From the NCBI GenBank assembly GCA_026396275.1, contig JAPLXC010000002.1, forward strand, positions 74,922-138,921: a DNA stretch of 64,000 nucleotides, written 5' to 3'. A program made the position numbers and the translations under genes. This stretch comes from Candidatus Moraniibacteriota bacterium. GTDB taxonomy: Bacteria; Patescibacteriota; Minisyncoccia; Moranbacterales; JAPLXC01. Shown piece after piece: positions 3,274 through 39,700 of the stretch (positions are counted from its first letter, which is position 1; every line of letters starts with the position of its first letter). Under the pieces are notes generated by a model. That model was not told where the DNA came from. It ran no database searches and saw only the letters and a program-made list of their open reading frames with translations.

Positions 3274-3816
3274 ATGCTTAAAAAAATTTTATTACTTTCC
3301 GGCTGGATGACCGATTTAAAATTATACAGAAAATATGATGATCTTACTATCCAAGTAAGTAAATTAAGCAGCGAATCTGAAAAAATCGATTATATAATTG
3401 GTCTAAGTTTGGGTGCTCTGATAGCCTTGCGTGAATGGAATAAAAGTGGGAAGCTGATTTTGATTAATCCGCCTCTTCCAAAAAGAAATATTTTCGTATG
3501 GCTTGGTAAATGGATTAAATTTATTTTGTCAGAAGGTTTATTTTTAGAGCGCCAGAAGTTTACAAAAAATCCATTCAGGTTTATTACTGAAATTATAAAA
3601 TGTGTAAAACTGCTCTCTGTGGATTTTTCAAAGGTTTTAGATAATATACCAGAAGACAAGTTAGTTGTGATTAAAGGCAAAAATGATAATTATTTCTGTG
3701 ATCAGAAAGCCGTAGAATTTATGCGATCAAAAAATATTACGGTTATTGAAGTTGAAAACGCTGGACACAATTGGTGTGAAGAAATTGAAAAAACTGTAAA
3801 TAAATTAATAAATTAA
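3274..3816 (+). CDS. small alpha/beta-hydrolase-fold serine hydrolase (putative esterase)
   Basis: GxSxG nucleophile motif (GLSLG) and a C-terminal His (NAGHNW). About 180 aa. Confidence 0.45.
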   Translation: MLKKILLLSGWMTDLKLYRKYDDLTIQVSKLSSESEKIDYIIGLSLGALIALREWNKSGKLILINPPLPKRNIFVWLGKWIKFILSEGLFLERQKFTKNPFRFITEIIKCVKLLSVDFSKVLDNIPEDKLVVIKGKNDNYFCDQKAVEFMRSKNITVIEVENAGHNWCEEIEKTVNKLIN

Positions 3817-3907: not shown

Positions 3908-5464
3908 GTGATTAAAAAAATTCCAAAAGAAGTAATTGAAGTTTTGCGGAAACTTGAAGCCGCAGATTTTGAGGCCTATATCGTAGGCGGGTGCGTGCGG
4001 GATTTGATCGTGGAAAAGGAACCGAAAGATTGGGATGTAACGACTAATGCGAAACCAGAAGAAATTTTAAAATCATTTCCGGACAGTTTTTATGAAAATG
4101 AATTTGGAACAGTCGGCGTAAAAGTAAAGCCGTTTATTAAGAATGGAAACCCAGATCGCGATCATGATGTTATTGAAGTTACTACATACCGCATTGAATC
4201 AAAATATTCCGACAAGCGCCGGCCGGACAAAATCAGGTTTGCCAAGACGCTAAAGGAAGATTTGAGTCGAAGGGACTTTACGATTAACGCGATAGCGTTA
4301 AAAATAAAAAATCAAAATGCAAAAATCAAAAATACTGATTATGAAATTATCGATCCCTATGACGGGAAGAGTGATTTAAAAAATAGAACAATCCGCACGG
4401 TGGGCGATCCTAATGAGCGGTTTGACGAGGACGCGTTGCGGATGATGCGAGCAGTAAGGTTCCACGCGGAACTGGGCTATAAGATAGAAGAAAAAACCCT
4501 AAAAGCGATCAAGAAAAACGCCAAATATCTCAAACACATTACGCTGGAAAGAATTAAAGACGAACTGGCAAGAATTATTTTGTCTGATAGTCCTGCCCGC
4601 AATGCTGCGCCCGTCAGAAGCGTTGCATCTGCTACAGGCTGGCATAGCGTTGCAGGCGGGCCTGCTGAGGGAATTGACATGCTTCATCAAACAGGATTAT
4701 TAAATTATATTATTCCAGAACTTGAAAAAGGCGTGGGGATAAAACAAAATCGCCATCATATCTATACCATATATAAACACAGTATTTTATCCTTAAAACA
4801 TTGCCCTTCTGCCAAACTTGAAGTGCGATTGGCGGCGCTTCTTCACGATATTTCCAAGCCTCAAACCAAAAGAGGCGAAGGCGAATACGCAACTTTTTAT
4901 AACCATGATCATGTTGGAGCCAAAGTAGCCGAAAAAATTCTTACACGCCTGCGTTTTTCTAATGAAGTTATTCAAAAAGTAAAACTTCTCGTGGATAATC
5001 ACATGTTTTACTATAATCCCGATGAGGTCGGAGTAAGCTCTGTTAGAAAATTAATTCAAAAAGTTGGCTTGGAAAACATGAAAGATCTGATTGATCTTAG
5101 AATTTCCGACAGATTGGGCTCGGGCGTGCCGAAAGCCAAGCCGTATAAGCTTCGCCACTTGGAATATATGATTGAGAAAGTTTCTCAGGACGCCATTTCA
5201 GTGAAAATGTTGAAAATCAACGGCAATGATTTGATGAAAGAATTAAAACTAAAACCCGGACCGAAAATCGGAGCGATTCTTGACGTTTTGCTTTCTGAAG
5301 TGATTGAGGACGCTTCTAAAAATAATCGGGATTATTTGCTGTCCCGTGCCAAAGAGCTGGATAAAAAGGACTTGGAAAAGTTAAGAAACATGGCAAAGGT
5401 TAAGATCGAAGAGAAAAAAGAAGAGGAAGACAAGGAAATAAAAAATAAGTATTGGGTTAAATAG
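3908..5464 (+). CDS. cca: CCA-adding tRNA nucleotidyltransferase (poly(A) polymerase family) with HD domain
   Basis: Nucleotidyltransferase motif YIVGGCVRDLI; RAVRFHAELGY helix; HD motif LLHDISKP. The track ORF starts at 3869 inside tRNA-Arg, so the start is moved to an in-frame GTG at 3908; the start is uncertain. Contains a 69-bp GC-rich in-frame insert at 4593-4661. Confidence 0.8.
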   Translation: MIKKIPKEVIEVLRKLEAADFEAYIVGGCVRDLIVEKEPKDWDVTTNAKPEEILKSFPDSFYENEFGTVGVKVKPFIKNGNPDRDHDVIEVTTYRIESKYSDKRRPDKIRFAKTLKEDLSRRDFTINAIALKIKNQNAKIKNTDYEIIDPYDGKSDLKNRTIRTVGDPNERFDEDALRMMRAVRFHAELGYKIEEKTLKAIKKNAKYLKHITLERIKDELARIILSDSPARNAAPVRSVASATGWHSVAGGPAEGIDMLHQTGLLNYIIPELEKGVGIKQNRHHIYTIYKHSILSLKHCPSAKLEVRLAALLHDISKPQTKRGEGEYATFYNHDHVGAKVAEKILTRLRFSNEVIQKVKLLVDNHMFYYNPDEVGVSSVRKLIQKVGLENMKDLIDLRISDRLGSGVPKAKPYKLRHLEYMIEKVSQDAISVKMLKINGNDLMKELKLKPGPKIGAILDVLLSEVIEDASKNNRDYLLSRAKELDKKDLEKLRNMAKVKIEEKKEEEDKEIKNKYWVK

Positions 5465-9432: not shown

Positions 9433-9876
9433 ATGGATAAGAAAATAATTGAATTTAATCAAGTTTCCCGTCAAAAGAAGATGCCGGTTCTGCGAGCGGG
9501 AGATATTATTAAAGTGCATCGTAAAATAATTGAAGGAGGGAAAGAAAGAGTCCAGGTTTTTGAAGGAATCATTATCTCGGTTAAAGGAAAGCAAAGTTCC
9601 TCGCCAATGATAAGGGTGCGCAAAGTTTCAGAAGGCGTGGGAGTAGAATTGATCATTCCTGTCTATTCTCCGCAAGTCAAAAAAATTGAAGTGGTAAGGC
9701 AAGCAAAAGTGCGAAGGGCAAAATTGTATTATCTGCGGGAGCGGTCAGCCAAGTCGCTCAGAATGAAATACAAGGAATTGTCAGAGTTTGCAAAGGGCGA
9801 GGAAGAAGAGAAGAAACCGGACAATACTGAAAAATCAGAAGCCAAACTTCCTTTAGAGAAGCACAAAGAAAAATAG
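9433..9876 (+). CDS. rplS: 50S ribosomal protein L19
   Basis: L19 signature RAGDIIKVHRKIIEGGKERVQVFEGIIISV... plus a Lys/Glu-rich C-terminal tail. Confidence 0.85.
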   Translation: MDKKIIEFNQVSRQKKMPVLRAGDIIKVHRKIIEGGKERVQVFEGIIISVKGKQSSSPMIRVRKVSEGVGVELIIPVYSPQVKKIEVVRQAKVRRAKLYYLRERSAKSLRMKYKELSEFAKGEEEEKKPDNTEKSEAKLPLEKHKEK

Positions 9877-10034
9877 TTTTTAGCGCCCAAGACGCAAAGC
9901 GGCATATTAACTGTTCACTTTACTAAGATTTGCGGATGTGGTGCCTGCCTGCTTGTCTCGCTAAAGCTATGGAGAAGCGGGCGGTCAGGGAACCCGGTAT
10001 ATTTACCCCGCATCAATTTCTGTGTTCTGAAGAA

Positions 10035-10118
10035 AGGGGACGTGGCGGAATTGGTATACGCGATAGGTTGAGGACCTATGCTCGCAAGAGCGTGAGGGTT
10101 CAAGTCCCTCCGTCCCCA
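10035..10118 (+). tRNA. tRNA-Leu(GAG)
   Basis: Acceptor ggggacg/cgtcccc. Anticodon arm atagg-ttGAGga-cctat. Long variable arm gctcgcaagagcgt. T-arm gaggg-ttcaagt-ccctc. Confidence 0.8.
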
Positions 10119-10282
10119 CACAGGAATTGGTGCGGGGCGCATATGCCCCAGTACTAAGTCCAGGGTGGACTAGTACGGGGTAAACTTGAGGTGCATGTGG
10201 GAGTAATCTCCCTAGAGGTTTTTACCCCGTATTTGGAGCGAAGCGACATAGTTCGGGGCAAATCCTCTCATCCGCACTTGAA

Positions 10283-10470
10283 GGATCCTTAGCTCAGTTG
10301 GTAGAGCGCTTCGCTTATTCACCCCGCACCAAAATTAAGGGCAATTAGCTCAGTTGGCTAGAGCGCTTCGTTTACACCGAAGATGTCGTAGGTTCGAGTC
10401 CTACATTGCCCACTAGAATTTGGTGCGGGGCAAACCGAAGATGTCGTAGGTTCGAGTCCTACAGGATCCA
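10283..10470 (+). pseudogene. interrupted tRNA-like gene 'X' (Val-like body). Its 5' half (10283-10320) and 3' half (10436-10470) have complementary acceptor strands ggatcct/aggatcc and are separated by a 115-nt insert that contains a complete tRNA-Val.
   Basis: 5' half: acceptor, D-arm gctcagttggtagagc, stem cttcg, loop cttattc. 3' half: cgaag, atgtc, T-arm gtagg-ttcgagt-cctac, aggatcc. The insert is bounded by the inverted repeat ccccgcaccaaaatt / aatttggtgcgggg. Confidence 0.55.
10339..10412 (+). tRNA. tRNA-Val(TAC), nested inside the split tRNA-like gene X
   Basis: Acceptor gggcaat/attgccc. Anticodon arm cttcg-ttTACac-cgaag. T-arm gtagg-ttcgagt-cctac. Confidence 0.85.
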
Positions 10471-10493
10471 CTAATAATGTTTTTTAAAATTTT

Positions 10494-10565
10494 GCCAGGC
10501 TAGCTCAGTGGTAGAGCGAAGGACTGAAAATCCTTGCGTCCCCAGTTCGATTCTGGGGCCTGGCA
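10494..10565 (+). tRNA. tRNA-Phe(GAA)
   Basis: Acceptor gccaggc/gcctggc. Anticodon arm aagga-ctGAAaa-tcctt. T-arm cccag-ttcgatt-ctggg. Confidence 0.85.
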
Positions 10566-10736
10566 CAATAGGCAAAATTTAGTATGGGGCAAGCTGAAAA
10601 CTTATGTCGGCAGTTTTTACCCCGTCGAATGATTGGGGCGATCCTGTCCCCAAGCACAACGCCAAGCATTCCACTATAACTAATATGATTAAGGAATGCT
10701 AATTACAGTAATGTTACTACTAAGTATTAGTAGTTA

Positions 10737-10809
10737 GGGTCCGTAGCTCAGCGGTTAGAGCGGCCGGCTCATAACCGGTTGGTCGCAAGTTCGAATCTTG
10801 CCGGACCCA
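10737..10809 (+). tRNA. tRNA-Met(CAT), elongator or tRNA-Ile2 (lysidine) type. Not initiator-like (G1:C72 pair).
   Basis: Acceptor gggtccg/cggaccc. Anticodon arm gccgg-ctCATaa-ccggt. T-arm gcaag-ttcgaat-cttgc. Confidence 0.75.
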
Positions 10810-10855
10810 CATAAAAAATTCAAAATTTAAAAATCAAAATGCAAAACTTAAGAAA

Positions 10856-10926
10856 GCGGAATTAGTATAGTGGTAGTACGCCACCTTGCCAAGGTGATGG
10901 CGCCGGTTCGATTCCGGTATTCCGCT
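10856..10926 (+). tRNA. tRNA-Gly(GCC)
   Basis: Acceptor gcggaat/attccgc. Anticodon loop ttGCCaa. T-arm gccgg-ttcgatt-ccggt. Confidence 0.8.
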
Positions 10927-11022
10927 CAATTTTAGGTTCGCTGCAGCACCGCTGAAGGGTGCTAAGCGCCCGGCATTCTTTAGCAGTACCGGGCGATTCC
11001 GCTCACTCGCTCTAAAAGAAAA

Positions 11023-11053
11023 ATTCCTCAAATGGTGAGGAATTTTTCTTTTT
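11023..11053 (+). terminator. Rho-independent terminator
   Basis: aattcctca-aatgg-tgaggaatt followed by TTTCTTTTT. Confidence 0.65.
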
Positions 11054-11100
11054 GTGTTAAAATGAGTCAAAACGTAACTTAGTGCGGTTAAACCTTTAAT

Positions 11101-11175
11101 TGCGACCGTAGTACAGTGGCAGTATACGACCTTCCCAAGGTTGAGACGTGGGTTCCCTGCCTGCCATTGCTCCAA
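11101..11175 (+). pseudogene. degenerate tRNA-Gly(CCC)-like copy
   Basis: Has a Gly-like D-arm gtacagtggcagtat and anticodon arm cgacc-ttCCCaa-ggttg, but the T-arm (gtgggttccctgcctg) and the acceptor 3' strand are degenerate. It aligns to the 3' half of the neighbouring split Gly gene. Confidence 0.4.
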
Positions 11176-11177
11176 AT

Positions 11178-11425
11178 GCGGATGTAGTATAGTGGTAGTG
11201 CCCCAGTACTAAACTTGCCTTACGACAAATTAATACGGGGCAGGCATAACCTTCCCAAGCCCCGCACTAAATCTGCACCGCACTTTGTGCGAGAATAGTA
11301 TAGTGGCATTACACTTGCTTCCCAAGCAAGAAACGCGGGTTCAATTCCCGTTTCTCGCTCCGTTATTTGTGCAGATTTTAGTGCGGGGCAAGGTTGAAGC
11401 GTGGGTTCGATTCCCATCATCCGCT
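11178..11425 (+). pseudogene. interrupted tRNA-Gly(CCC)-like gene. The 5' part (11178-11259) and 3' part (11389-11425) have complementary acceptor strands gcggatg/catccgc. It hosts a complete tRNA-Gly(CCC) and also carries an extra 45-nt hairpin insert after the D-arm.
   Basis: 5' part: gcggatg-ta-gtatagtggtagtg ... taacc-ttCCCaa-g. 3' part: caaggttg-aagc-gtggg-ttcgatt-cccat-catccgc-t. The insert is bounded by ccccgcactaaatctgcac / gtgcagattttagtgcgggg, with a 4-bp direct repeat caag at both junctions. Confidence 0.55.
11289..11359 (+). tRNA. tRNA-Gly(CCC), nested inside the split Gly(CCC)-like gene
   Basis: Acceptor gcgagaa/ttctcgc. Anticodon arm cttgc-ttCCCaa-gcaag. T-arm gcggg-ttcaatt-cccgt. 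Confidence 0.85.
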
Positions 11426-11531
11426 CAGGCATTTGGCAGGCGGGGATTCTCATATCCCGCTCAAAGATTCTCTGAAAAATTGGCTTATTTCAACCCCGAA
11501 TATTTTCCTAGAATAAGCCAAATTTAGACCA

Positions 11532-11556
11532 AAATCCCTTATTTAAGGGATTTTTT
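11532..11556. terminator. symmetric hairpin with T-runs (bidirectional terminator-like)
   Basis: aaatccctta-ttt-aagggattt, followed by TTTTTT. Confidence 0.55.
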
Positions 11557-11713
11557 GGTTTTCCAAGCTTGACTTTCTGCCTGCAATCTGCTAGCATGGT
11601 AGGTTGGCATAATATGCCTTTTTTGTTTGGGCTATTTGCCAGCCCCCTAAACCACAGAAGGTTCAGGGCAGGGCAGTTTCTGAAAAACGTGCCTTAACAA
11701 TTAATGATAGCTT

Positions 11714-12277
11714 ATGGAACTTATTAGTATAATCGCCACTCTGCCGATTGCTGGCGGGCTGACTTTCGGAACGCCAACCATAGTAGAGGAACCAATCAAT
11801 ACTAATACAAAAATAGAATTTGTGGTTGAGAAAAATATACAACTTAATAACGGTTTTGTTGAAAGCAAAAATAATATTCCATATAACTCCGAGAGCTATA
11901 AACCAGTGAAAGGCGAAGAAGAAATTAAAAGAGAAGAAAAACTTTCCAAGTGGGAAGAAAAGCAAGCTCATCTGAAAAGCAATCTTCCTAAAGAAAAATT
12001 TACTGGAAACTTCTCGGCTTATACTGCCGCCGCTGACGAGTGTGGAAAATCGGACGGGATTACCGCGAGCGGCCTTAAGGTTAAAGGAAAAAGAACCCTT
12101 GCCTGTCCTCCGCAGTATCCTTTCGGAACAAAAGTTAAAATTGAAGGATACGGAACTTATGTCTGCGAAGATCGCGGGGGAGCGATCAAGAGTAACCATT
12201 TTGACATTTATATGGAAACTAAATCTCAAGCTTTCGCTTTTGGAAGAAGGCATCTCGAAGCGGAAGTGGTGGATTAA
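11714..12277 (+). CDS. 3D-domain (MltA/RlpA-like double-psi beta-barrel) cell-wall-binding protein
   Basis: C-terminal region ...GLKVKGKRTLACPPQYPFGTKVKIEGYGTYVCEDRGGAIKSNHFDIYMET..., which is typical of the 3D domain. Confidence 0.5.
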   Translation: MELISIIATLPIAGGLTFGTPTIVEEPINTNTKIEFVVEKNIQLNNGFVESKNNIPYNSESYKPVKGEEEIKREEKLSKWEEKQAHLKSNLPKEKFTGNFSAYTAAADECGKSDGITASGLKVKGKRTLACPPQYPFGTKVKIEGYGTYVCEDRGGAIKSNHFDIYMETKSQAFAFGRRHLEAEVVD

Positions 12278-12287
12278 TCCATCCAAA

Positions 12288-12348
12288 TGTCATTCCGGGC
12301 TTGACCCGGAATCTAGAAAATTGGATTCCCGCCTTCGCGGGAATGACA
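12288..12348. mobile_element. MITE-like element (TGTCATYC...GRATGACA family), copy 2, intergenic
   Basis: tgtcattccgggcttgacccggaatc...cccgccttcgcgggaatgaca. It has the terminal inverted repeat and two internal hairpins. Confidence 0.55.
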
Positions 12349-12437
12349 TACTAACAAGCAAAAACACCCAAGGATTTTCCGAGGGTGTTTTTGTATTACC
12401 TTGTTAATTTTGGCTTGTTGGTATAAATTTGTTATAA

Positions 12438-12508
12438 GGTCCGGTGGCCGAGAAGTTAGGCAGAGGTCTGCAAAACCTCTTACAGCAGTGCAAATCTGCT
12501 CCGGACCT
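12438..12508 (+). tRNA. tRNA-Cys(GCA)
   Basis: Acceptor ggtccgg/ccggacc with U73 discriminator (the Cys identity element). Anticodon arm gaggt-ctGCAaa-acctc. T-arm agcag-tgcaaat-ctgct. Confidence 0.75.
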
Positions 12509-12533
12509 CAAAATTATAGTATGGTTTGTCCAA

Positions 12534-12621
12534 GCCCGGGTGATGGAATCGGCAGACATGAGGGACTTAAAATCCCTTGGATGAATAATCCGTGCGAGTT
12601 CGAGTCTCGCCCCGGGCACCA
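12534..12621 (+). tRNA. tRNA-Leu(TAA), CCA encoded
   Basis: Acceptor gcccggg/cccgggc. Anticodon arm aggga-ctTAAaa-tccct. Long variable arm. T-arm gcgag-ttcgagt-ctcgc. ACCA at the end. Confidence 0.8.
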
Positions 12622-12626
12622 AAATT

Positions 12627-12931
12627 ATGACCAATTATACAATAATCTCGAAATTCAGAAATAAAGAACAGGTAGAATATCTCACTCGAAAATTAAAAGA
12701 AAAAGGTAATACTTGTTATACACTTTTAAAAGAGACATGAAAGGACTAGAGGATTGTGAAAAAGTTATTATGCTTCTTCCGGGCGGAAACTCCGCACATA
12801 TTGAAGCTGGCATTGCTTATGGAATAGGCAAACCGCTTATATTGATAGGCGAACCAGAAAAACCAGATACTTTGTATCTGATATTTAAAGAGAGATATAA
12901 AACGATAGAGAAATTTTTGAAGAGTATTTAA
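12627..12931 (+). pseudogene. nucleoside 2-deoxyribosyltransferase-like (YtoQ-type) gene fragment, split by a frameshift
   Basis: Frame 1 (12627-12740) reads MTNYTIISKFRNKEQVEYLTRKLKEKGNTCYTLLKET* and an overlapping frame (12713..12931) reads ...LLPGGNSAHIEAGIAYGIGKPLILIGEPE.... Both pieces together are shorter than typical family members. Confidence 0.35.
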
Positions 12932-15038: not shown

Positions 15039-15305
15039 AAATATTCCCCCGCGAATCTACAAATTTTGCTACAAATCTACAGATACTATGATTGTATTAT
15101 ACATTATTTCTGATTTATTCGTACGTTCGTACAGTTTAGTAATTCGCAGAGATTACACTATTTCCCATCCGTTTTCCGCCCCAGCACCATTTTTCAATAA
15201 AGTTATTTCTTAATAATAAGTTTATTGGACAAAACGGCTTCGCCTTTGATTTTTCATAATTGATAATCTGTGCTGAAAATGGTGCGGGGTAAATCTCCAC
15301 AATTT

Positions 15306-19103: not shown

Positions 19104-19346
19104 AACGTTTTTGATAACTAGAGCTTATTTCACGTTAGCATTTATTTCCCCTTGTGTAAAGAAAAAAAGGCAAATGGCGGTTTTTCTAGAACCCGTAAGA
19201 AAGCGGAGGGTACAGGAGTTGAACCCGTAATCCGCTAGGCGGGAAACCGCATTTTCCGCCAAAGGTGGACCAGCCGTTGGCTGGCGAGTTATATAAGCGA
19301 AAGAGGTGAGATTTTCACCCCGCACCTATAAAAATTTTATAAATTT

Positions 19347-19580
19347 GCGGCGGGAGAGGGATTCGAACCCCCGGTACCCTTTCGGATACACCTGATTTCG
19401 AGTTCCCGCACAAAGCGGAAGGAGTGAGATTCGAACTCACGGTCCCGTTTCCGAGACACCGCATTTCGAGTGCGGCCCATTCAACCACTCTGGCATCCTT
19501 CCACTATATGCGGGACGCAGCAGGCCTACGTGTCCCGCACCAATTTTTGGTGCGGGATTCAACCACTCTGGCATCCCGCC
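19347..19580 (-). pseudogene. interrupted tRNA-Ser(CGA)-like outer gene. The 5' piece (19557-19580; acceptor ggcggga plus D-arm) and the 3' piece (19347-19413; anticodon loop, variable arm, T-arm, acceptor tcccgcc) flank the intact tRNA-Ser(CGA).
   Basis: Acceptor strands ggcggga/tcccgcc are complementary. The D-arm is identical to that of the inner Ser gene. The CCCGCACC/GGTGCGGG inverted repeat flanks the insert. Confidence 0.5.
19416..19502 (-). tRNA. tRNA-Ser(CGA)
   Basis: The reverse complement folds as: acceptor ggaagga/tccttcc, D-arm ccagagtggttgaatgg, anticodon arm ccgca-ctCGAaa-tgcgg, long variable arm gtctcggaaacgggacc, T-arm gtgag-ttcgaat-ctcac. Confidence 0.8.
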
Positions 19581-19599
19581 AAAATTTTGGTGCGGGGCG

Positions 19600-19800
19600 G
19601 GCTCACAAAGGGATTGCTCCCTTACGGCTTTTTCTCGACCCCGTAAGAAAGCGAAGGGTATAAGAGTTGAACCTGTGAGGGGATTGCTCCCCAACCGCAT
19701 TTCGAGTGCGGCGCATTAGACCACTCTGCCAACCCCCCGCTTCTCTACGGGGCGAGGCCGCTTCCTTTATTGAATCTCGGCCACTCTTCCAATTATATAA
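19600..19800 (-). repeat. array of further degenerate tRNA-Ser-like fragments (minus strand)
   Basis: A second ccgca-ctCGAaa-tgcgg anticodon arm at 19698-19715; duplicated variable-arm hairpins ggggagcaatcccc / gggagcaatccc; an unusual T-loop ttcaact; and a class-II-like 5' fragment ggaagag-tg-gccgagattc. Confidence 0.4.
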
Positions 19801-21997: not shown

Positions 21998-22609
21998 ATG
22001 AATTTTAAAAAATATTATTTAATAGCGACTGCCAGTGTTATTCTCGCCTTAATTTTTCCTTTTGTTTCTTTAGCCCAATGCAAGGCGGAAGGAAATGTAA
22101 TAGAGTTTTGCAATCCTCTCCGGTTCAACACGGTGCAGGAAGTTTTAGCGAGCTTAATGGCTTCCCTTCAAGGAGTAATTGTAGTCATCTCTATTATTTT
22201 CATAATTATCGGGGCGGTGTTTTACATTACTTCGGGCGGGAGCGAAGATCGGATAAAAACCGCCAAGAAAGCCATTCTTGCCTCAATGATCGGACTAGCT
22301 ATTGGAATTGCGGCACCGACATTCCTAAAGGAAATATCAAGCATCTTAGGATGGACAAATCAGCCACCGGAGTTACAACAGGCGAAAAGCATTGCCGAAA
22401 TAGCTCTTAGTGTCCTGAATTTTCTTCTGGGAATTGTCGGGGCTCTGGCGCTCATTATGATGATAATTGGGGGAATTATGTATCTCACCGCAGCGGGAAA
22501 CGAGGACCGAATTGATGCAGGCAAAAAGATTTTCAAGTTTTCCCTAATTGGAATTGCCGTGGCGCTGGCATCGCTGGTTATTATCAGACAAATTGCCTTG
22601 TTTTTTTAA
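21998..22609 (+). CDS. T4SS-type pilin (TrbC/VirB2-like) with two tandem pilin domains
   Basis: Signal peptide, then two copies of the hydrophobic-YxTxGG(S/N)EDRI(x)AKK-hydrophobic module (FYITSGGSEDRIKTAKKAILASMIGLAIGI and MYLTAAGNEDRIDAGKKIFKFSLIGIAVAL). Confidence 0.6.
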   Translation: MNFKKYYLIATASVILALIFPFVSLAQCKAEGNVIEFCNPLRFNTVQEVLASLMASLQGVIVVISIIFIIIGAVFYITSGGSEDRIKTAKKAILASMIGLAIGIAAPTFLKEISSILGWTNQPPELQQAKSIAEIALSVLNFLLGIVGALALIMMIIGGIMYLTAAGNEDRIDAGKKIFKFSLIGIAVALASLVIIRQIALFF

Positions 22610-22641
22610 TCAATATTTTTTAACGCAAAGAATTTAGACCA

Positions 22642-23097
22642 ATGCTATTCAATGTTCCCCAATTTATTGATGTGGAAGACAAAGTGGCCGGTCCCTTCAC
22701 GGCCAAGCAGCTTCTTTGGATGTTTGGAATGGGCGCGGTACTGCTAGTGCTCTGGAACATACTTGAAAAACCGGCTTTTTTTGTTTCCGCTGTTCCGATA
22801 GTTGCTCTTTTTATGGCTTTGGCTTTTTATCGCCCCTATAACCAGCCACTAATAAGATTTATTCTTTTTTCTTTACTGTTCCTTTTCCGCCCCAAGGTGT
22901 ATGTGTGGAAAAGAATTCCTCATAAAATAGCATCTCAGGCAGGAAAGAAAAAAACGCCTGCTACGATGGAAAAAGAAAAAAAGAAAATGCTCAATCCGGA
23001 AAATATAGAAGCGTTAGCGCGAGTGCTGGACAGCGAGGGCAGGGAACGGAATGAAAAAATTATGGAGATAATAAAGAGAAATCAAAAATCAAAATGA
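22642..23097 (+). CDS. VirB3/PrgI-like small membrane protein of the T4SS-like system
   Basis: 151 aa with two adjacent TM helices after an N-terminal ...FIDVEDKVAGPFTAKQLLWM... segment. Sits immediately upstream of the VirB4 ORFs. Confidence 0.4.
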   Translation: MLFNVPQFIDVEDKVAGPFTAKQLLWMFGMGAVLLVLWNILEKPAFFVSAVPIVALFMALAFYRPYNQPLIRFILFSLLFLFRPKVYVWKRIPHKIASQAGKKKTPATMEKEKKKMLNPENIEALARVLDSEGRERNEKIMEIIKRNQKSK

Positions 23098-23185
23098 AAA
23101 AATCAAGATTCTAAATCAAAATTAAAAAATTTTTAAGTTCTAAGGTCTCTTAATTTCAATTTTTTATCTTTTTGCATTTTGATAT

Positions 23186-23890
23186 TTGATTTTTAATATT
23201 GCTATGGAGTTACTACATTCGAAAAAATTAACCGCCGGGAGTGGAGCCAGCACGCAAAAGTACGTGGACGTTGAAGAGATTAAAAACGGAGTTATCGTTC
23301 TTAAAAACGGGTCTTTGAGGGCCATTCTTTTGGTCTCTTCCATAAATTTCGAGCTTAAGTCCACGGAAGAGCAGGACGCAATCGTCGGCCAATATCAAAA
23401 CTTCCTTAATTCTCTGGATTTCCCTGTTCAGATTATTGTCAGTTCCCGACGGCTCAATATTGGTCCCTATCTGGATTTTTTAGGGGATAAAGAAAGTCAG
23501 CAGACGAATGAATTATTGCGGCTCCAGATTTCCGAATACATAAACTTCATTAAAAATCTCACCGAGGTCTCCAATATAATGTCCAAGTTTTTCTATATCG
23601 TGATCCCCTTTTCTCCAGTGGAAACAAAAGAAGGAGGGCCTTTCCGGAAACTCACTTCAATGTTCAACCCTCGACAGTCAATACTGCGCAAGCGAGAACT
23701 TTTTGAGACATACGAAAACCAGCTGTGGCAAAGAGTGGATCACGTGGTTGCCGGGCTGAGCGGAACAGGAGTAAAAGTTACTCCTCTGGGTACTGAAGAG
23801 GTAATTGAGCTGCTGTATAATTCCTATAATCCAACAATCTATACCAACTCAATCGTCCGGGAGATTGAAAATATTGAACTAGGAAAATAA
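23186..23890 (+). CDS. VirB4/TrbE-like N-terminal domain, encoded as a separate ORF
   Basis: 234 aa ending 4 nt before the ATPase ORF. Together the two ORFs reach the normal VirB4 length (~840 aa). Own RBS (AGGAAA) precedes the downstream ATG. Confidence 0.5.
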   Translation: MIFNIAMELLHSKKLTAGSGASTQKYVDVEEIKNGVIVLKNGSLRAILLVSSINFELKSTEEQDAIVGQYQNFLNSLDFPVQIIVSSRRLNIGPYLDFLGDKESQQTNELLRLQISEYINFIKNLTEVSNIMSKFFYIVIPFSPVETKEGGPFRKLTSMFNPRQSILRKRELFETYENQLWQRVDHVVAGLSGTGVKVTPLGTEEVIELLYNSYNPTIYTNSIVREIENIELGK

Positions 23891-23894
23891 AATT

Positions 23895-25706
23895 ATGTTT
23901 GATCTGGGAAAAAATAAAAAAGAAAAAGACACACTGCTGGAAAGCGAAGAACTTTATCAAGCAGGAGAGGCAACTATTAAGGACTTGATTGCTCCGGCGG
24001 CGGTGAAGATTAATGCCAACTATATCCAAATTGGCGAGACCTACACCCGAACACTTTTTGTCATTACCTACCCCCGTTATCTTCACACTAGCTGGTTTTC
24101 GCCGATTATCAACATTGATTTTCCGCTGGACATCGCCATGTTTATTCATCCGGTTGATACCAACGAAATCCTGAAAACTTTGCGCAAATCCACCACCCGG
24201 GTGCAGTCAGAAATTCACTTGGAGGAAGAAGCCGGAAAAATTCGCGACCCGATTTTGGAAACCGCCCTTCGGGATATTGAGGACTTGCGCGACAAGCTTC
24301 AGCAAGGGACTGAAAAATTCTTTCGATTCGGTCTTTACATGACCGTTTACGGGAAGAGTTATGATGAAGTAAGCAAGATCTGCCAGCAAATTGAGGCCAT
24401 TTTAGAAGCGCAACTGGTTTACGTGAAGCCGGCGGTACTTAAAACCGAACAGGCCTTTTCTTCCACGCTGCCGCTGGCTAACGACGAGCTGGATGTCGGG
24501 AATAATCTCAATACCTCCCCTCTTTCCACCACTTTTCCTTTCGTTTCTTCCGACCTTTCCTCCAATGAAGGAATTCTTTACGGCATCAACCGGCACAACA
24601 ATAGTTTAATTCTTTTTGACCGGTTCAATATGGAGAATGCTAATATGGTGATTTTCGCCAAATCCGGAGCCGGGAAAAGTTATTCCGTGAAACTGGAGGT
24701 GCTGCGCTCGATGATGCTGGGGACAAACGTGATGATTATTGACCCGGAAAACGAATATAAATATCTGTGCGAAACGGTCGGCGGAACCTTTGTTAAAATT
24801 TCTTTGGACTCCCATTTTCACCTCAATCCCTTTGATCTTCCTAAAATCAAAGAAGACGAAGATCCGGAAGGAGTTATCCGCAATACCATCGCTAATATTA
24901 TCGGTCTTCTTCATCTCATGCTCGGATCAGTCACGCCGGAAGAGGATTCAATTTTGGATCGAGCCATTCGAGAGACCTACGCGGTGCGCGACATTACTCC
25001 CCAGAGCAACTTCCAGTCGTTTACTTCCAATTCTTTCCCGACGATGTCCGATCTTTATGAAGTGCTGCGCAATATGGAGGGAGCGGAATCGCTGGCGATG
25101 CGTCTTGAAAAATACACCGAAGGAATTTTTTCCGGCTTTCTCAATAATCCCACCAACGTGAATATTGACAACCAGCTGGTAGTGTTCAACATTCGCGATT
25201 TGGAAGAGGAACTTCGCCCAGTGGCGATGTACGTTGTTTTACAATTCATCTGGAATGAGATGCGTTCGGAGCTAAAGAAGCGTTTAGTAGTAGTGGATGA
25301 GGCCTGGGTAATGATGCAAAATGAAGACGCCGCTTCTTTTATGTTTGGCATTGCCAAAAGGTGCCGCAAGTACTACACGGGACTTACCACTATTACTCAA
25401 GACATTACTGACTTTTTGGCTTCCCGCTACGGAAAGCCGATTGTCACCAACTCCTCGATTCAGTTGCTTCTCCGCCAGTCGCCAGCGGCCATTGAAACAG
25501 TAGTGGAGACGTTTTACCTTACCGATCAGGAGAAATTTCTGCTTTTGGAAAGCAACGTCGGGGAAGGAATATTTTTTGCCGGCACCAAGCATGTGGCGAT
25601 TAAAATCATCGCTTCCTATAGTGAGGATCAGATTATTACTTCCGATCCACGCCAGCTGCTGGAAATAGAGCAAGCCAAAAAAGAATTTGGCGAGGAAAAA
25701 ATGTAG
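23895..25706 (+). CDS. virB4: VirB4/TrbE/CagE-family T4SS ATPase (C-terminal ATPase portion)
   Basis: Walker A IFAKSGAGKSYSVK, Walker B LVVVDEAWVMMQNEDAA, and the TTITQDITDF motif. Confidence 0.85.
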   Translation: MFDLGKNKKEKDTLLESEELYQAGEATIKDLIAPAAVKINANYIQIGETYTRTLFVITYPRYLHTSWFSPIINIDFPLDIAMFIHPVDTNEILKTLRKSTTRVQSEIHLEEEAGKIRDPILETALRDIEDLRDKLQQGTEKFFRFGLYMTVYGKSYDEVSKICQQIEAILEAQLVYVKPAVLKTEQAFSSTLPLANDELDVGNNLNTSPLSTTFPFVSSDLSSNEGILYGINRHNNSLILFDRFNMENANMVIFAKSGAGKSYSVKLEVLRSMMLGTNVMIIDPENEYKYLCETVGGTFVKISLDSHFHLNPFDLPKIKEDEDPEGVIRNTIANIIGLLHLMLGSVTPEEDSILDRAIRETYAVRDITPQSNFQSFTSNSFPTMSDLYEVLRNMEGAESLAMRLEKYTEGIFSGFLNNPTNVNIDNQLVVFNIRDLEEELRPVAMYVVLQFIWNEMRSELKKRLVVVDEAWVMMQNEDAASFMFGIAKRCRKYYTGLTTITQDITDFLASRYGKPIVTNSSIQLLLRQSPAAIETVVETFYLTDQEKFLLLESNVGEGIFFAGTKHVAIKIIASYSEDQIITSDPRQLLEIEQAKKEFGEEKM

Positions 25707-36741: not shown

Positions 36742-39700
36742 ATGCTCAAGGAAAAATGCGAAAAAATTTACGGTAAAATAAAAAATTGGGCGATCATTGT
36801 CCGCGATTCTAGCCGGCGCCACTTCCCGCTGGTTTTGGCGATTATTTTTTTGACTCCGGCTTTTATTCTACTTTTTCTTTTTGTTAATTCGCAACTACAT
36901 AAGCAGTCTTCTTACGCGGCCACTTTTACTGGAAAAGTCAAAGTTTCCAAGCAGACAACGACTTTGTCAACCAGCGGGGACTGGTATACTTCCATGGCTC
37001 ATTCCGGCGACGGAGTCAACGGTGACGCGGAATCGGGCACTTTCAATCCAATTCATCCGGGCCAGGGAGCGGGAACCGAGCCGGGAGCTGGCGGAATCGC
37101 TATGGGCCATGTGGCCATGGGAGCAACAACCACTTACGCGGCCGCCCAGTTCATCGGTTTTAAACCAAGCGCCACAGGAAACTTGGACGGGGTCCAGCTG
37201 GTTTTTGAAAATTTGACTTCAACCAATCTTTCCAATGTGGACTTGGTGGTTGAATTTGTTCGTTTTCCCTCAGCGACGTATAGCGGGGGTTGGACCAATT
37301 ATGTGACCGGCACCCAAGGCGCTTATACATATCCTTCCGACACGCAAGTTTTGCGCCGGACGGTCTGGCAGTTCAATCAGGAGCTTTCCGGGGAAAACGC
37401 GGCGCCGGGTCAGTTCGGGCGGGCAACTTTTGACTTTCGCTTTGATCCACCGGTAGCAGTAACAACCGGCGGAGGGGCCGGCGATCATTACGGCATCCGG
37501 ATTATCAACATGGGCGCCAGCACTCCGGTTTTTGGCACTTGGGCGCAAGCGCCTCAGTCCAACGGCTTCCCTTCAATCAACGGCACGATCCGGACAATCG
37601 GCTTCAATGATCTTGATACAACTAACGCCCCAACCGTTACTATGCCAGTGGTTTTGGGAGGAAATACGGTTTTGACAACCGGCGCGATGGTGGCGGCTAA
37701 TTCGGTTCCGGGAATCGGATTGCCGACAGTGCGCAGAACGGAAAACGAACACTGGACAGCCACTTATTCTTCAGCCAATGGAAATTGGACAGTTGCTGGA
37801 TCGGTTTCCGGAACACAAACCAATAAATTAACTACATCCACTAATGGCGGAACCGGCGCCAGCTGGCTCAATGACAGCGCTGTCTATACCACTCTGACCT
37901 CGGACATTACCGGCACAACCAACAAACTTTGCGTGGATTCAATCACCGGTTTTGCGGCCAACCAATATATTGATGTTTGGGACAGCGATACGGCTTCGGC
38001 TCAATTTACTATTCTTTCAGTAAATTCTTCAGACGGCAGTTGTCCGTTAAGCGGACCGTCCATTACTACAACCGCCAACCTGACTAACACCAATAACTAC
38101 ACCCAATCCAAAAACGCCACCGTAGCCAGAACCACCTGGAAGCAAAGAATTATTCAGGGAGCAATCCAGGTCTTTACCCAGGATATGCCCTCAACCACTA
38201 AAATCTGCGTGGCCGATTCAAGCAGATTCAGCGCGCCGACAGCCGGAACAGCCAATAACATCGTGGTTTGGGACAATAACACAACAACAATCAACACCAA
38301 CCGCGTCGTATCCACTTCGCAGGCGGATGGAAGCTGTACCAGCAATAACAGCATTACAATATCAACAGCGATTACTGCCGGAACTTATACTACCGCTCAA
38401 AGCGCTTATGTGGCGGAATATTCGGCTCATCTTTCCAATTCGGCCGCACCGTCCAATGGAGCGGTTTTACGCTGGACGACTTTTAATCATCCGCAAAATC
38501 CAACCAATTCAACTTTGCTGGCGCGGACTACTTCAGTTAATTTGGCTTACGCTAAATCACAGTCGCCGGCCACTTCCAGCACCAACTATCCTTATCTATC
38601 CAACCGCCATATTTTCTTTGTGGCTTATGGCGACGCGGACACGACCGCGCCGGCTGACGGTGATATTGTTATCGTCGGCAACGGCAAATCCGATCCTGAT
38701 TCCGGCGATTCATCCAATTTGACCAGCGACATCAACTGGGCGACCAAGGAATCGCATGTGGTGACGATTGACCGCAGTTGGGACGCGCCGATGGCATATA
38801 GCGGAACCAACGCAGCGGCGGTGGGCGACGGCGCCGGTTCTCGTGCCAACTTTGCCGCCTGGAGCCAGAACGGCGGCTGGGTATCAGCGCTGGTTACTCC
38901 CAGTTCGCAATTGGGGATAGACAACAGCACCAACAAGCATTACCGGATTACCATTCCCGGAAAAATTGTGGTTGACTCGGACGCATCGGTGGCGCTTGGG
39001 AAATCCGGAGCAGCCATTCCGGAAAGTTCTGGCCACGACATATATTTTGACACGGTGAGTCCCGCGGCTTCAACGCTTTTGACTGTTGACTCGGCGGCTA
39101 CTACGACTTTGACCGTAGCTTCCACCACTAATTTTATGCCCGGAGACACGATTGTCTTGGACGATAACAATTCCGTTCCGATAACGAGAATTATCGCGGC
39201 GGTTGAAAATTCTACCACCATAACTTTAACCGCGGCGGCGGTAACCGGCTATACCGTGGCACAGAGCGCATTTATCGCCAAAGGTCCGACCACTGAACTG
39301 CCAACTGGTTCTGATAGAAGAGCCGGGATTTATACAATGACCGGCCTTAACGGAGCATCCACGCCGGCGCAAAGCAATACCCGTACCGGAAGAGTGGCGC
39401 TTTATGCCGACGGTTCGGAAGATTTCAGAACTTCCAAAAGTGATTTGGCAGTGGATGTTGACGGCAATATTGACACTGGATATTTAGGAAATAATTCAAC
39501 TGATGCCGGCAATACCTGGGTGGATGTGGAAGATGATGTAGTTGGCAACTGGCAGCCGCTGGATCAGGTGGCTGTTGCCGGAGGGACCAATCAGCTGGCG
39601 GACAATAATTATTCCTCAACTGAGTTGGGCGGGACGGATGACGCCAACCAGATGCCGGTTTGGACAGGAGCCACAACCAAGGTTGACGCCGGAGCCGGGG

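Follow-up and report, generated by a model that had tools for sequence, protein, structure and literature searches.

Nested tRNA genes within palindromic cassettes of Moranbacteria: candidate REP/REPIN-like elements that replace the tRNA genes they enter

Background

REP sequences are palindromes with a conserved tetranucleotide 5' of the foot, and inverted doublets of them (REPINs) form a hairpin (PMC3333891, PMC3337134). They are extragenic by definition, the REP-RAYT and IS200 systems have a cognate Y1 gene, and IS200/IS605 elements insert 3' of one fixed tetra- or pentanucleotide. The elements described here resemble REP/REPIN-RAYT and IS200/IS605 systems in their short imperfect palindromes, in a 4-nt motif at the hairpin foot, in their occurrence in both orientations, in insertion without target duplication and in being non-autonomous; with REP/REPIN they also share longer forms in which two inverted arms around a spacer make one long hairpin. 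They differ in that the tail is a degenerate YYYR rather than GTAG, the arms are plain complementary sequences rather than two individually palindromic REPs, the spacer is a complete tRNA gene, the element flanks are variable, the copies lie inside tRNA genes (6/7 of those in the window, by which we mean the whole 64-kb stretch of DNA analyzed) and no cognate Y1 gene was found in that window.

Several other systems interrupt or enter genes in comparable ways. Islands and prophages that use tRNA genes as integration sites span kilobases and code for an integrase; they rebuild just the 3' part of the gene and leave direct repeats. They too bring along a replacement tRNA sequence when entering an essential tRNA gene, but the cassette here is ~110-150 bp, its inverted repeats enclose an entire gene, and both halves of the old gene stay in place. 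Rickettsia palindromic elements (RPE) are likewise short palindromes and enter functional genes, those for RNAs among them, but differ in carrying no cargo. Thermoproteales have tRNA introns at non-canonical positions (literature cited in PMC10714607), and split tRNAs occur in Nanoarchaeum and Caldivirga. These archaeal genes resemble the present ones in having several insertions per gene (D arm, anticodon arm and T loop), related inserts in different tRNAs and GC-rich complementary sequences beside tRNA halves; here, by contrast, the host is bacterial, inserts occur in both orientations, the interrupted genes are often degenerate and a whole tRNA of the same identity lies inside. The eukaryotic Dada transposons insert specifically into tRNA and snRNA genes (PMC8869645). 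Unlike the present elements, they need a multi-copy target, encode a transposase and make target-site duplications. Group I-interrupted tRNA genes of the same phylum involve the same kind of host gene and are similarly missed by standard tools; the inserts there are ribozymes, whereas those here are palindromes of 31-130 nt. The paper on these interrupted genes leaves hairpin inserts and nesting unmentioned. Nested palindromic tRNA cassettes appear to be undescribed, as a literature search gave no prior description.

Results and discussion

Anatomy of the Gly(CCC) nest

The original prediction placed an intact tRNA-Gly(CCC) inside a split tRNA-Gly(CCC), and all of the sequence features that it listed are present at the coordinates given. 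The locus has three levels, each interrupted gene being called a shell; the gene that had been taken as the outer one is the middle shell. Shell coordinates were obtained by manual parsing and exact-substring mapping. All features lie on the + strand:

11102-11154, +: 5' part of the outermost (third) shell, a degenerate tRNA-Gly(CCC), from the acceptor 5' strand to the T-stem 5' strand plus TT
11155-11179, +: left arm, CCCTGCCTGCCA…CCAAATGC, of the palindrome carrying the middle shell, complementary to 11429-11445
11178-11200, +: middle shell nt 1-24 (acceptor 5' strand, D stem, D loop), assigned by ARAGORN after in-silico insert removal
11201-11244, +: cargo-less palindromic element, CCCCAGTAC…TACGGGG (11201-11240) plus 4-nt tail CAGG (11241-11244), assigned by DNA fold and the tail rule
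11245-11259, +: middle shell nt 25-39 (C25, A26, anticodon stem 5' strand TAACC, loop TTCCCAA, G39)
11260-11392, +: tRNA cassette, comprising left arm 11260-11278, spacer, inner tRNA, spacer, right arm 11369-11388 and tail CAAG 11389-11392
11289-11359, +: inner intact tRNA-Gly(CCC), RF00005 67.8 bits (ARAGORN 11289-11361)
11393-11425, +: middle shell nt 40-73 (GTTG, variable loop, T arm, acceptor 3' strand CATCCGC, discriminator T)
11429-11445, +: right arm, GCATTTGGCAGGCGGGG, of the palindrome carrying the middle shell, pairing with 11155-11179
11446-11463, +: 3' remainder of the outermost shell, ATT-CTCAT-ATCCCGC-TCA, from manual parsing

The inner gene is the only intact Gly(CCC) gene within the 64-kb window and is presumed to be functional. 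Around it the predicted 19-bp inverted repeat is present, with arms of 19 and 20 nt and one bulged base (CCCCGCACTAAATCTGCAC, 11260-11278, with GTGCAGATTTTAGTGCGGGG, 11369-11388), and the segment 11256-11392 folded as DNA gives z = -8.3. In the middle shell the cassette separates nt 39 from nt 40; because a native CAAG lies there, the insertion point is ambiguous by up to 4 nt. Joining 11178-11200, 11245-11259 and 11393-11425, which removes two inserts, yields a 72-nt tRNA-Gly(CCC) that ARAGORN recognizes. This shell was assessed only in that way, its interruption precluding an Infernal score.

The second insert had been read as a 45-nt hairpin between the D-arm and the anticodon arm. It is indeed a hairpin (z = -2.4 folded as DNA), but it measures 44 nt and lies within the D-stem 3' strand, at nt 24 | 25, and its first 12 nt recur in the element at 10146-10184 of the neighboring Leu nest. 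The upstream sequence that had been taken for a separate, degenerate Gly(CCC) copy is degenerate and tRNA-like, but it forms the 5' part of the third shell, the rest of which is at 11446-11463. The T loop of this outermost shell is broken by the left arm at 11155-11179, whose last 2 nt are also the first two of the middle gene. The foot of this arm is of the CCTGCC type also seen at 9944-9989 in the outer Leu gene, and together with 11429-11445 the arm encloses the whole middle gene. The outermost anticodon arm reads CGACC-TTCCCAA-GGTTG, and pairing between the acceptor strand of 11446-11463 and 11102-11108 has been lost; the 3' end of that remainder is similar to the intact Gly(CCC) of L011 (loci of other genomes are given here by L numbers).

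The presence of three Gly(CCC)-like copies in 360 nt could suggest tandem tRNA-Gly duplication followed by deletion or slippage at hairpins, with no mobile element involved, and a partial tRNA duplication of another kind is known in L029. We consider this very improbable, since the three shells are different alleles whose acceptor, anticodon and T stems all differ, the arms are conserved across tRNA types and genomes, and the outer alleles equal intact genes of other species.

Sister nests in the window

That the architecture recurs with other tRNA types was borne out: nests or their relics were found for Leu, Val, Phe and Ser as well as Gly. These and one related copy are:

9932-10277, +: outer tRNA-Leu(GAG) with four elements inside (palindrome 9944-9989, cassette 10002-10137, hairpins 10146-10184 and 10221-10258)
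10283-10470, +: outer tRNA-Val, its anticodon loop broken by cassette 10318-10434 with an intact Val(TAC) at 10339-10412 inside
10571-10656, +: Phe relic, in which an orphan right arm with its CAAG tail precedes the 3' remains of an outer tRNA-Phe; these include a T-loop hairpin (10616-10638), and the 5' half is lost
15179-15293, -: palindrome-family copy outside any tRNA gene, with a TTTA tail and ~75-nt AT-rich non-tRNA cargo
19203-19790, -: multi-level Ser(CGA) nest, the outermost Ser holding the Ser1 cassette 19639-19752 and a T-loop cassette 19314-19601

An intact Leu(GAG) (10036-10118) is housed in the Leu cassette, and excising all four elements in silico seamlessly restores an 87-nt tRNA-Leu(GAG) called by ARAGORN. 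The Phe relic lies downstream of an intact Phe (10494-10566), and complete versions of this nest are present in L030, L008 and L004. In the Ser nest the T-loop cassette carries a second Ser shell, which itself holds a hairpin and the Ser2 cassette, and a further Ser 3' relic occupies 19203-19228 (- strand). The element at 15179-15293 is the only palindrome-family copy of the window that is not within a tRNA gene; its cargo core AAGGCGAAGCCG is shared with L004:4424-4531. No internal promoters were predicted on the + strand inside the nests.

The palindromic element and its insertion

The unit common to these loci is a CCCC(G/A)…(C/T)GGGG palindrome, one foot of which bears a single 4-nt tail; the consensus arm is CCCCGCACYAAAWTT. 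The tail is YYYR if on the left and YRRR if on the right, and the element is found in either orientation. Each arm is a plain sequence of 12-20 nt that is not itself palindromic, and the arms around a tRNA spacer form one long hairpin. Cassettes are ~110-150 bp, the inserts are palindromes of 31-130 nt and the short imperfect palindromes measure 30-45 nt. The window holds 8 copies of CCCCGCAC against 1.1 expected, and six of its seven long CCCC…GGGG palindromes are in tRNA nests (genes or relics), which is more than chance would give. The claim of a mechanism is supported, in the form of a recurrent, tRNA-carrying and gene-replacing cassette.

The elements insert seamlessly, without target duplication, in both orientations. 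The uninterrupted Phe gene of L031 is the same as the outer one of L030, in which a cassette has entered at 31|32 and a hairpin at 39|40 with no duplication, and comparison of the Val genes of L016 and L013 with that of the window likewise gives insertion without target duplication. These cases and the four seamless Leu excisions overturn the proposal that the CAAG present at both junctions of the Gly cassette is a target-site duplication. It is not one because the second CAAG is the element's own YRRR tail abutting the native CAAG; a CAAG or CAGG tail also ends the Phe cassettes, where there is no repeat. A DDE-type MITE was rejected as a candidate for the same element, as inverted repeats are present but no duplication appears in any comparison with an uninterrupted relative. 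The flank opposite the tail is variable, with only a bias of its first base toward pyrimidine, and thus contains no fixed tetra- or pentanucleotide. Two kinds of junction depart from the single-tail seamless model, namely the T-loop junctions (CCYG|…|TGAAAWT) and Val junctions with 6 extra nt.

The exact removal of two (Gly) and four (Leu) inserts to give perfect outer cloverleaves raises the alternative that the outer genes are functional, their RNA being freed of hairpins and tRNA cassette by a putative bacterial endonuclease-ligase pair or, in a variant, the halves being held together by the 19-bp helix as in a split tRNA. RNase P and RNase Z would release the inner tRNA. In the fold of the transcript 11178-11425 (z = -6.8), both the acceptor and the anticodon stem of the outer gene are closed, with the arms stacked on them, and inserts at several tRNA positions are also described for the bulge-helix-bulge (BHB) introns of archaeal Thermoproteales (literature cited in PMC10714607). 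The tails, however, are distributed as expected of double-stranded DNA rather than of an RNA recognition site: hairpin-only elements have 44 left-only, 44 right-only and 11 two-sided tails, with ~11 expected per side, and the commonest left and right tails are reverse complements (TTTA/TAAA, CCTG/CAGG, CTTG/CAAG). A large number of the shells are evidently damaged, every nest has within it an intact gene for the same anticodon, palindromes of this family are also present outside tRNA genes, and the host is bacterial. A BHB intron (3-4-3) was also rejected on structural grounds, since the junctions consist of a hairpin foot with a 4-nt tail on either side and the T-loop and anticodon-stem junctions have no 4-bp helix between intron start and exon 2. 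We therefore regard RNA-level removal as improbable, and marginally more so the proposal that the shells are alive, whether because the palindromes, tRNA-bearing or empty, are cut out of their RNA or because the halves make a helix-tethered split tRNA. No splicing endonuclease (EndA) or ligase was found among the ORFs scanned in 64 kb. A search with the group I covariance model found nothing in 9800-12800, down to hits as weak as E <= 10; tRNA-Phe genes with group I-like interruptions were seen in L027 and L022.

Recurrence, alleles and decay in other genomes

The search for cassettes of inverted repeats around a tRNA in other genomes, which had been suggested as a check, was positive in other Moranbacteria MAGs (loci L003, L004, L008, L020, L022, L027 and L030) and in at least 120 metagenomic contigs, against ~3 expected by our own estimate. 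Among the metagenome matches listed, 118 of 120 carry a tRNA, with 16 amino-acid types represented; flanking tRNA pieces are co-oriented, with 111 hits on the plus strand and 1 on the minus strand, and left flanks have the same amino acid as the cargo in 47 and a different one in 8. A scan of viral contigs returned a single match and no sign of phage carriage. In L029 the 5' part of Gly(CCC) is duplicated around an ORF, a partial tRNA duplication of another kind.

The window comes from a metagenome-type genome, and chimeric read joining at repeated tRNA sequence could be imagined as the origin of the nests; no identical second assembly was found with the queries used (the neighboring 3D-domain protein led to a 959-nt contig, and L19 to none). 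The same architecture and exact junction rules in many independent assemblies from different projects make an assembly artefact exceedingly improbable.

Shell and cargo differ in allele, and both alleles are known in intact form from elsewhere. The outer Leu allele of the window matches the intact Leu of L035 and L005, the 5' 35 nt of the outer Val agree at every position with the only Val(TAC) of L016, an intact gene, and the alleles seen in outer shells correspond to genes that relatives have as their one intact copy. The tRNA origin of the outer halves had been open to refutation by covariance-model scoring. By ARAGORN and by sequence comparison they are real tRNA genes, orthologous to intact genes of relatives, with the exception in scoring that the outermost 5' Gly copy (11102-11171) reaches 27.3 bits against RF00005 in Infernal, below the 29-bit threshold. 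Shells are seen in every stage of decay, the series being L016, L094 and the Phe relic of the window, and many are broken by missing halves, unpaired acceptor strands, wrong-length anticodon loops or non-canonical T loops. Nests are gained or lost between relatives, as L030 and L031 differ in this way at ~86% nucleotide identity, and chimeric alleles were found in the inner Val of the window and the Val of L033. No convincing case was found of a tRNA broken only by a cargo-less palindrome with no intact copy nearby, in a test that is noisy and of low sensitivity.

Homologous recombination offers a competing account of this distribution, in which the interrupted allele spreads between genomes by homing with the tRNA halves as homology arms; the driver may be a nuclease that cuts uninterrupted tRNA genes, such as a small GIY-YIG of tRNA clusters, together with natural transformation. 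The insertion position for each tRNA family recurs across divergent genomes and outer alleles, the Phe cassette and hairpin are inherited together at a distance of 8 nt, the chimeric alleles resemble conversion tracts, and a match of cargo and target identity is near universal among the metagenome matches listed. About a dozen loci have GIY-YIG ORFs (PF01541) within or next to their tRNA clusters, and one such ORF lies in the L004 Val nest. The window, on the other hand, has no GIY-YIG gene, one tRNA type can have several independent positions (at least four for Pro; 39|40 in the window and the D loop in L194 for Gly(CCC)), cargo-less copies occur at many sites in both orientations, the copy at 15179-15293 is outside any tRNA, and the homology arms would be merely ~25-40 nt. 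We consider homing unlikely on balance, and slightly less so, if still doubtful, a self-complementing homing element whose cassette locates its cognate tRNA gene via homology with its own cargo. Homing overlaps with the explanation favored below, from which it differs in what moves the cassette and in the cause of the cargo-target match, which would be homology and not selection.

Search for an enzyme

Pfam and tblastn searches of the 64-kb window revealed no transposase or nuclease, and the cassettes contain neither. An autonomous copy with a transposase between matching arms was sought and rejected, as the only long pairs are two separate CCCCGTTAGAGAG hairpins around a CYTH/P-loop ORF. A single IS200-like gene was present in ~1.25 Mb of related contigs, the Y1 transposase at L094:1735-2166 (PF01797, 4.4e-26), 700 nt from a Pro nest. 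No RAYT match was obtained by tblastn, a weak negative with an approximate query sequence. The only integrase-like gene in the window (51979-52977, XerC/D-like) is 40 kb from the nest; with repeats that are inverted and not direct, a tyrosine-integrase island was rejected.

A model of successive cassette invasion

We assign a probability of roughly 0.6 to the reading that REP/REPIN-like mobile palindromic DNA cassettes bring a replacement tRNA into the cognate tRNA gene and that repeated invasions produce 'Russian dolls'. The Gly locus would then be a three-shell doll built by successive DNA-level insertions, each cassette carrying a complete tRNA-Gly(CCC) into a resident tRNA-Gly(CCC). Each insertion would destroy the resident gene while the cargo gene takes over its function, leaving only the innermost gene (11289-11359) functional and the shells as relics. 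The shells may subsequently pick up further cargo-less palindrome copies and then decay or be deleted, and recombination between shell and cargo could generate the chimeric alleles. The match of cargo and target would arise where tRNA genes are single-copy and only complementing insertions survive; the element may thus either actively target tRNA or simply be kept where its cargo makes good the damage. The shared orientation of cargo and shell may reflect dependence of the cargo on read-through transcription. Movement in trans by a single-strand HUH (RAYT/IS200-like) transposase is a possible but tentative step, suggested because the elements have REP/REPIN architecture.

Some observations run counter to this model. 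Four separate insertions have left the cloverleaf of the outer Leu perfect, and the outer Phe genes of L030 and L008 are intact apart from their inserts; both are cleaner than dead genes would be expected to be. Two insertion positions are also shared by three different outer Phe alleles, so that either strong site specificity or transfer by homologous recombination is needed.

Conclusions

If the cassette model is right, a mobile element is widespread in these ultra-small bacteria that destroys an essential gene and supplies, as its cargo, a functional copy of that gene; it needs no splicing and leaves its target unrestored. If the cassette is a self-complementing homing element, this would represent a third route into essential genes, besides splicing and target restoration. 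If instead the shells are alive, CPR bacteria would have protein-dependent, multi-position tRNA splicing analogous to that of archaea, with 'a tRNA inside a tRNA intron'. Under the cassette model, this process would account for rapid horizontal turnover of tRNA alleles (the acceptor stems of close relatives are completely different) and would explain why CPR tRNA loci are full of fragments that annotation tools ignore or miscall. Tallies of tRNA genes and calls of 'missing tRNA' in Patescibacteria would be affected. With shells representing older alleles, the nests would preserve the order in which invasions followed one another, and they could be used to test whether palindromic REP-like elements truly move, and by which enzyme.

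Nested tRNA genes in the window

The window is a bacterial chromosome segment whose gene content includes L19, an RluD-like pseudouridine synthase, the CCA-adding enzyme, IF-2, RbfA and UvrD, and the nearest relatives of its L19 (56-70% identity) are all from Candidatus Moranbacteria / Patescibacteria MAGs. Thirty-five Moranbacteria/Patescibacteria loci share the gene order rplS, Leu(GAG), Val(TAC), Phe, (Met), Gly(GCC) … Cys, Leu(TAA), and ARAGORN and Rfam each identify 14 intact tRNAs in the window. The segment also holds a single ORF of 4152 aa (36742-49200) and a type IV secretion-like set (T4SS pilin, PrgI and a VirB4/TraG-like ATPase; 21998-25706) that might bear on how this lineage exchanges DNA.

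The sequence features originally listed for the Gly(CCC) locus, an intact gene between inverted repeats within a split gene of the same type, are all present, and the architecture recurs with other tRNA types, in Leu, Val, Phe relic and Ser(CGA) nests. We use cassette for the palindrome arms, their tRNA cargo and a 4-nt tail, and shell for the older, interrupted tRNA gene around it.

Features of the tRNA nests in the window
11260-11278: left arm of the inner Gly cassette, CCCCGCACTAAATCTGCAC
11369-11388: right arm, GTGCAGATTTTAGTGCGGGG; the two arms bracket the inner tRNA-Gly(CCC)
11446-11463: 3' remainder of the third Gly shell
9932-10277: outer Leu with four inserts, one a cassette with an intact Leu(GAG)
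10283-10470: outer Val, containing a Val(TAC) cassette
3' of Phe: orphan right arm; 3' relic of a Phe gene
19203-19790, minus strand: multi-level Ser(CGA) nest

The inner tRNA-Gly(CCC) (11289-11359) scores 67.8 bits with Rfam, and the 137-nt stretch comprising it and its arms has a DNA fold z of -8.3. Joining 11178-11200, 11245-11259 and 11393-11425 restores a 72-nt tRNA-Gly(CCC) recognized by ARAGORN, with the cassette inserted between nt 39 and 40 (+/- 4 nt); the segment removed at 11201-11244 is a 44-nt cargo-less member of the family with a CAGG tail and has the same first 12 nt as the element at 10146-10184. The degenerate copy noted upstream scores 27.3 bits and forms the 5' portion of a third shell, whose T loop is split by the palindrome CCCTGCCTGCCA…CCAAATGC, complementary to GCATTTGGCAGGCGGGG, that carries the whole middle gene. 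The locus is Gly inside Gly inside Gly, with stems that differ from shell to shell. Removal of the four inserts from outer Leu, exact to the nucleotide, likewise yields an 87-nt tRNA-Leu(GAG).

Within the window, CCCCGCAC occurs 8 times against 1.1 expected, and of its seven long CCCC…GGGG palindromes (family A) all but one lie inside the nests, which occupy ~3% of the sequence. The seventh (15179-15293, minus strand) is intergenic and has an AT-rich, non-tRNA cargo, whose core AAGGCGAAGCCG recurs in a related contig (L004:4424-4531), also in a family-A palindrome. At 10928-11010, past the intact Gly(GCC) on its 3' side, the 3' end GATTCCGCTCA occurs a second time, preceded by GCGCCCGG…CCGGGCG; this resembles the remnant of a 3' half whose T arm has expanded.

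Definition of the element

Boundaries were set from unambiguous junctions in T loops and anticodon stems and from comparisons with insert-free relatives. T-loop junctions follow the pattern GG-TT|TTTA-CCCC…GGGG|CRANT-CC, and the element is a palindrome with a CCCC/GGGG foot and a single 4-nt tail; target duplication is absent from both the unambiguous junctions and the comparisons. In contig L031, ~86% identical to L030, the Leu, Val and Phe genes are compact and uninterrupted. L030 carries this same Phe allele as its outer gene, with two inserts: the cassette CCCC…GGGG-CAAG lies at 31|32 and the hairpin TTTA-CCCC…GGGG at 39|40. Among hairpin-only candidates in ~1.25 Mb of related contigs, YYYR tails were found on the left only in 44, YRRR tails on the right only in 44 and both in 11, against a chance expectation of ~11 per side. 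Reverse-complementing the most frequent left tails (TTTA, CCTG, CTTG, TTCA, CCCG) gives the most frequent right tails (TAAA, CAGG, CAAG, TGAA, CGGG).

The CAAG repeat originally read as a target-site duplication does not survive this definition, as the second CAAG at the Gly junction is the element's own tail. Because Phe cassettes have the same CAAG or CAGG end with no repeat on the opposite side, the CAAG/CAAG pair is coincidence or micro-homology. The wider interpretation, a cassette and gene replacement, stands once this duplication is removed. In L194:1692-1765 (minus strand), a Gly(CCC) cassette with CCCCGCACC arms sits in the D loop of an outer Gly gene; insertion position is therefore not fixed per tRNA type.

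Occurrence in metagenomes

A metagenome scan with the pattern CCCCGCAC-N55-85-GTTCRANTCC-N15-45-GTGCGGGG returned at least 120 matches, against ~3 by chance by our own calculation. ARAGORN placed a tRNA between the arms in 118 of the 120 matches listed, representing 16 amino-acid types. Among these listed matches, flank hits to the tRNA database were on the cargo strand in 111 of 112, and the left flank was of the cargo's amino-acid type in 47 and of a different type in 8, the exceptions being mostly neighbouring genes or generic arms. Apparent cargo/target mismatches (Thr in 'Ala' or 'Arg', for example) turned out to be degenerate Thr shells. Of the first 78 loci, 25 yielded an ARAGORN tRNA spanning the junction once the element and one tail were removed, and in 13 of these the anticodon was that of the cargo; the remaining loci were broken or required more excisions. 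Viral contigs gave one match.

Resident alleles and decay of shells

The outer Val of the window (acceptor GGATCCT) is the allele found as the sole, intact Val(TAC) in contigs L013 and L016, with an identical 5' 35 nt and the uninterrupted version CTTCG-CTTACAT-CGAAG there. Similarly, L035 and L005 have an intact gene of the outer Leu allele (GCGGATG), L008 has an outer Phe of the L021 type, and inner alleles also occur as sole copies in other loci. The inner Val of the window combines a GGGCAAT acceptor with an outer-type core and L033 has a Val with the two parts exchanged, so there is recombination between shell and cargo. Relics are seen at all stages of decay: L016 has lost the 5' half and left arm, the middle shell of L094 its 3' half and the window Phe relic its 5' half, and C-to-T changes erode arms.

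Homology-based homing of the cassette into its cognate tRNA gene is a serious rival, or complement, to transposition, and would account for the recurrence of the same positions across different outer alleles. Its driver might be the small GIY-YIG proteins (~80 aa) that recur inside or directly beside these tRNA clusters and may act on tRNA genes as free-standing homing endonucleases; in L004, directly repeated copies of the Val(TAC) 5' half lie on both sides of the ORF.

Other inserts and palindromes in related contigs
GIY-YIG ORFs: L004:6615-6857; L029:6690-6926; L013:8911-9132; L003:794-1021 and 3583-3720; L028:7351-7575; L009:3181-3408; L087 (three copies)
CCCGCCTCGACTCGCG…CGCGAGGCGGG palindromes, 41-45 nt: L003:82-123, 430-470 and 3965-4005; L013:1937-1981; L020:4807-4847; L035:3698-3738; L006:1951-1995; L015:4618-4662
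CCCCGTTAGAAG…CTTCTAACGGGG palindromes: L003:2279-2354; L004:8945-9021; L013:5826-5919; L017:4479-4581

The CCCGCCTCGACTCGCG…CGCGAGGCGGG palindromes form a second family, which lies in D loops of tRNA relics and also in non-tRNA DNA, including an apparent coding region in L013, a copy that recalls the Rickettsia palindromic elements. The CCCCGTTAGAAG…CTTCTAACGGGG palindromes occupy similar intergenic positions 5' of rplS-region genes, are followed by TTGAC (L003, L004, L013) or CTTGCC (L017), and may be another palindrome family or a regulatory hairpin. At L029:7290-8160, copies of the 5' two-thirds of tRNA-Gly(CCC), the upstream one with its anticodon mutated to CTC, flank a ~215-aa ORF, so that insertion at a tRNA T loop also occurs in another mode, with direct repeats.

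Mechanism

Literature searches returned no description of nested, disrupted or inverted-repeat-flanked tRNA genes in CPR, and a 2026 survey of Patescibacteria tRNA introns reports group I introns only, with no mention of hairpins or nesting. Long inserts starting TTTTCGGTCCATT… that split the tRNA-Phe anticodon loop in L027 (from ~1915 on) and L022 (from ~2240 on) are probably group I introns of this kind; Rfam detected none in the tRNA cluster at 9800-12800. Excision of the inserts at the RNA level retains some weight, mainly because certain shells are so clean. The evidence points to DNA-level mobility rather than RNA splicing: both orientations are used symmetrically, insertion is seamless, elements occur outside tRNA genes, the cargo is always intact and the shells are often broken.

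REP sequences are palindromes with a tetranucleotide beside the foot, REPINs are two inverted arms around a spacer that form an ssDNA hairpin, and the enzymes that move both are Y1 HUH transposases. These are relatives of IS200/IS605 TnpA and cause no duplication on insertion (PMC3333891, PMC3337134). The tRNA elements share the palindrome with its foot-adjacent 4-nt tail; their inverted arms, here around a tRNA spacer, resemble those of REPINs, except that each arm is a plain sequence and not itself a palindrome. From this architecture we propose that the element would be a REP-like palindrome with a tRNA gene in its loop. GCGAAGC-type mini-hairpins in element loops are modestly enriched (10 versus 1.9 expected), which fits a single-stranded-DNA intermediate. 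No Y1 gene was found in the 64-kb window, and the only IS200-like gene found near nests is in L094. A three-level Pro(CGG) nest is found 700 nt away from this Y1 transposase (L094:1735-2166; PF01797, 4.4e-26), which has a CCCCGCC…GGCGGGG left-end hairpin and interrupts a NUDIX-like gene.

Cargo-target match and co-orientation are most simply explained by selection: where tRNA genes are single-copy, an insertion would survive only if its cargo complemented the loss and could be transcribed by read-through. No internal promoter was predicted on the plus strand inside the nests. We regard the element as a new and widespread form of palindromic mobile DNA that carries a self-complementing tRNA cargo.
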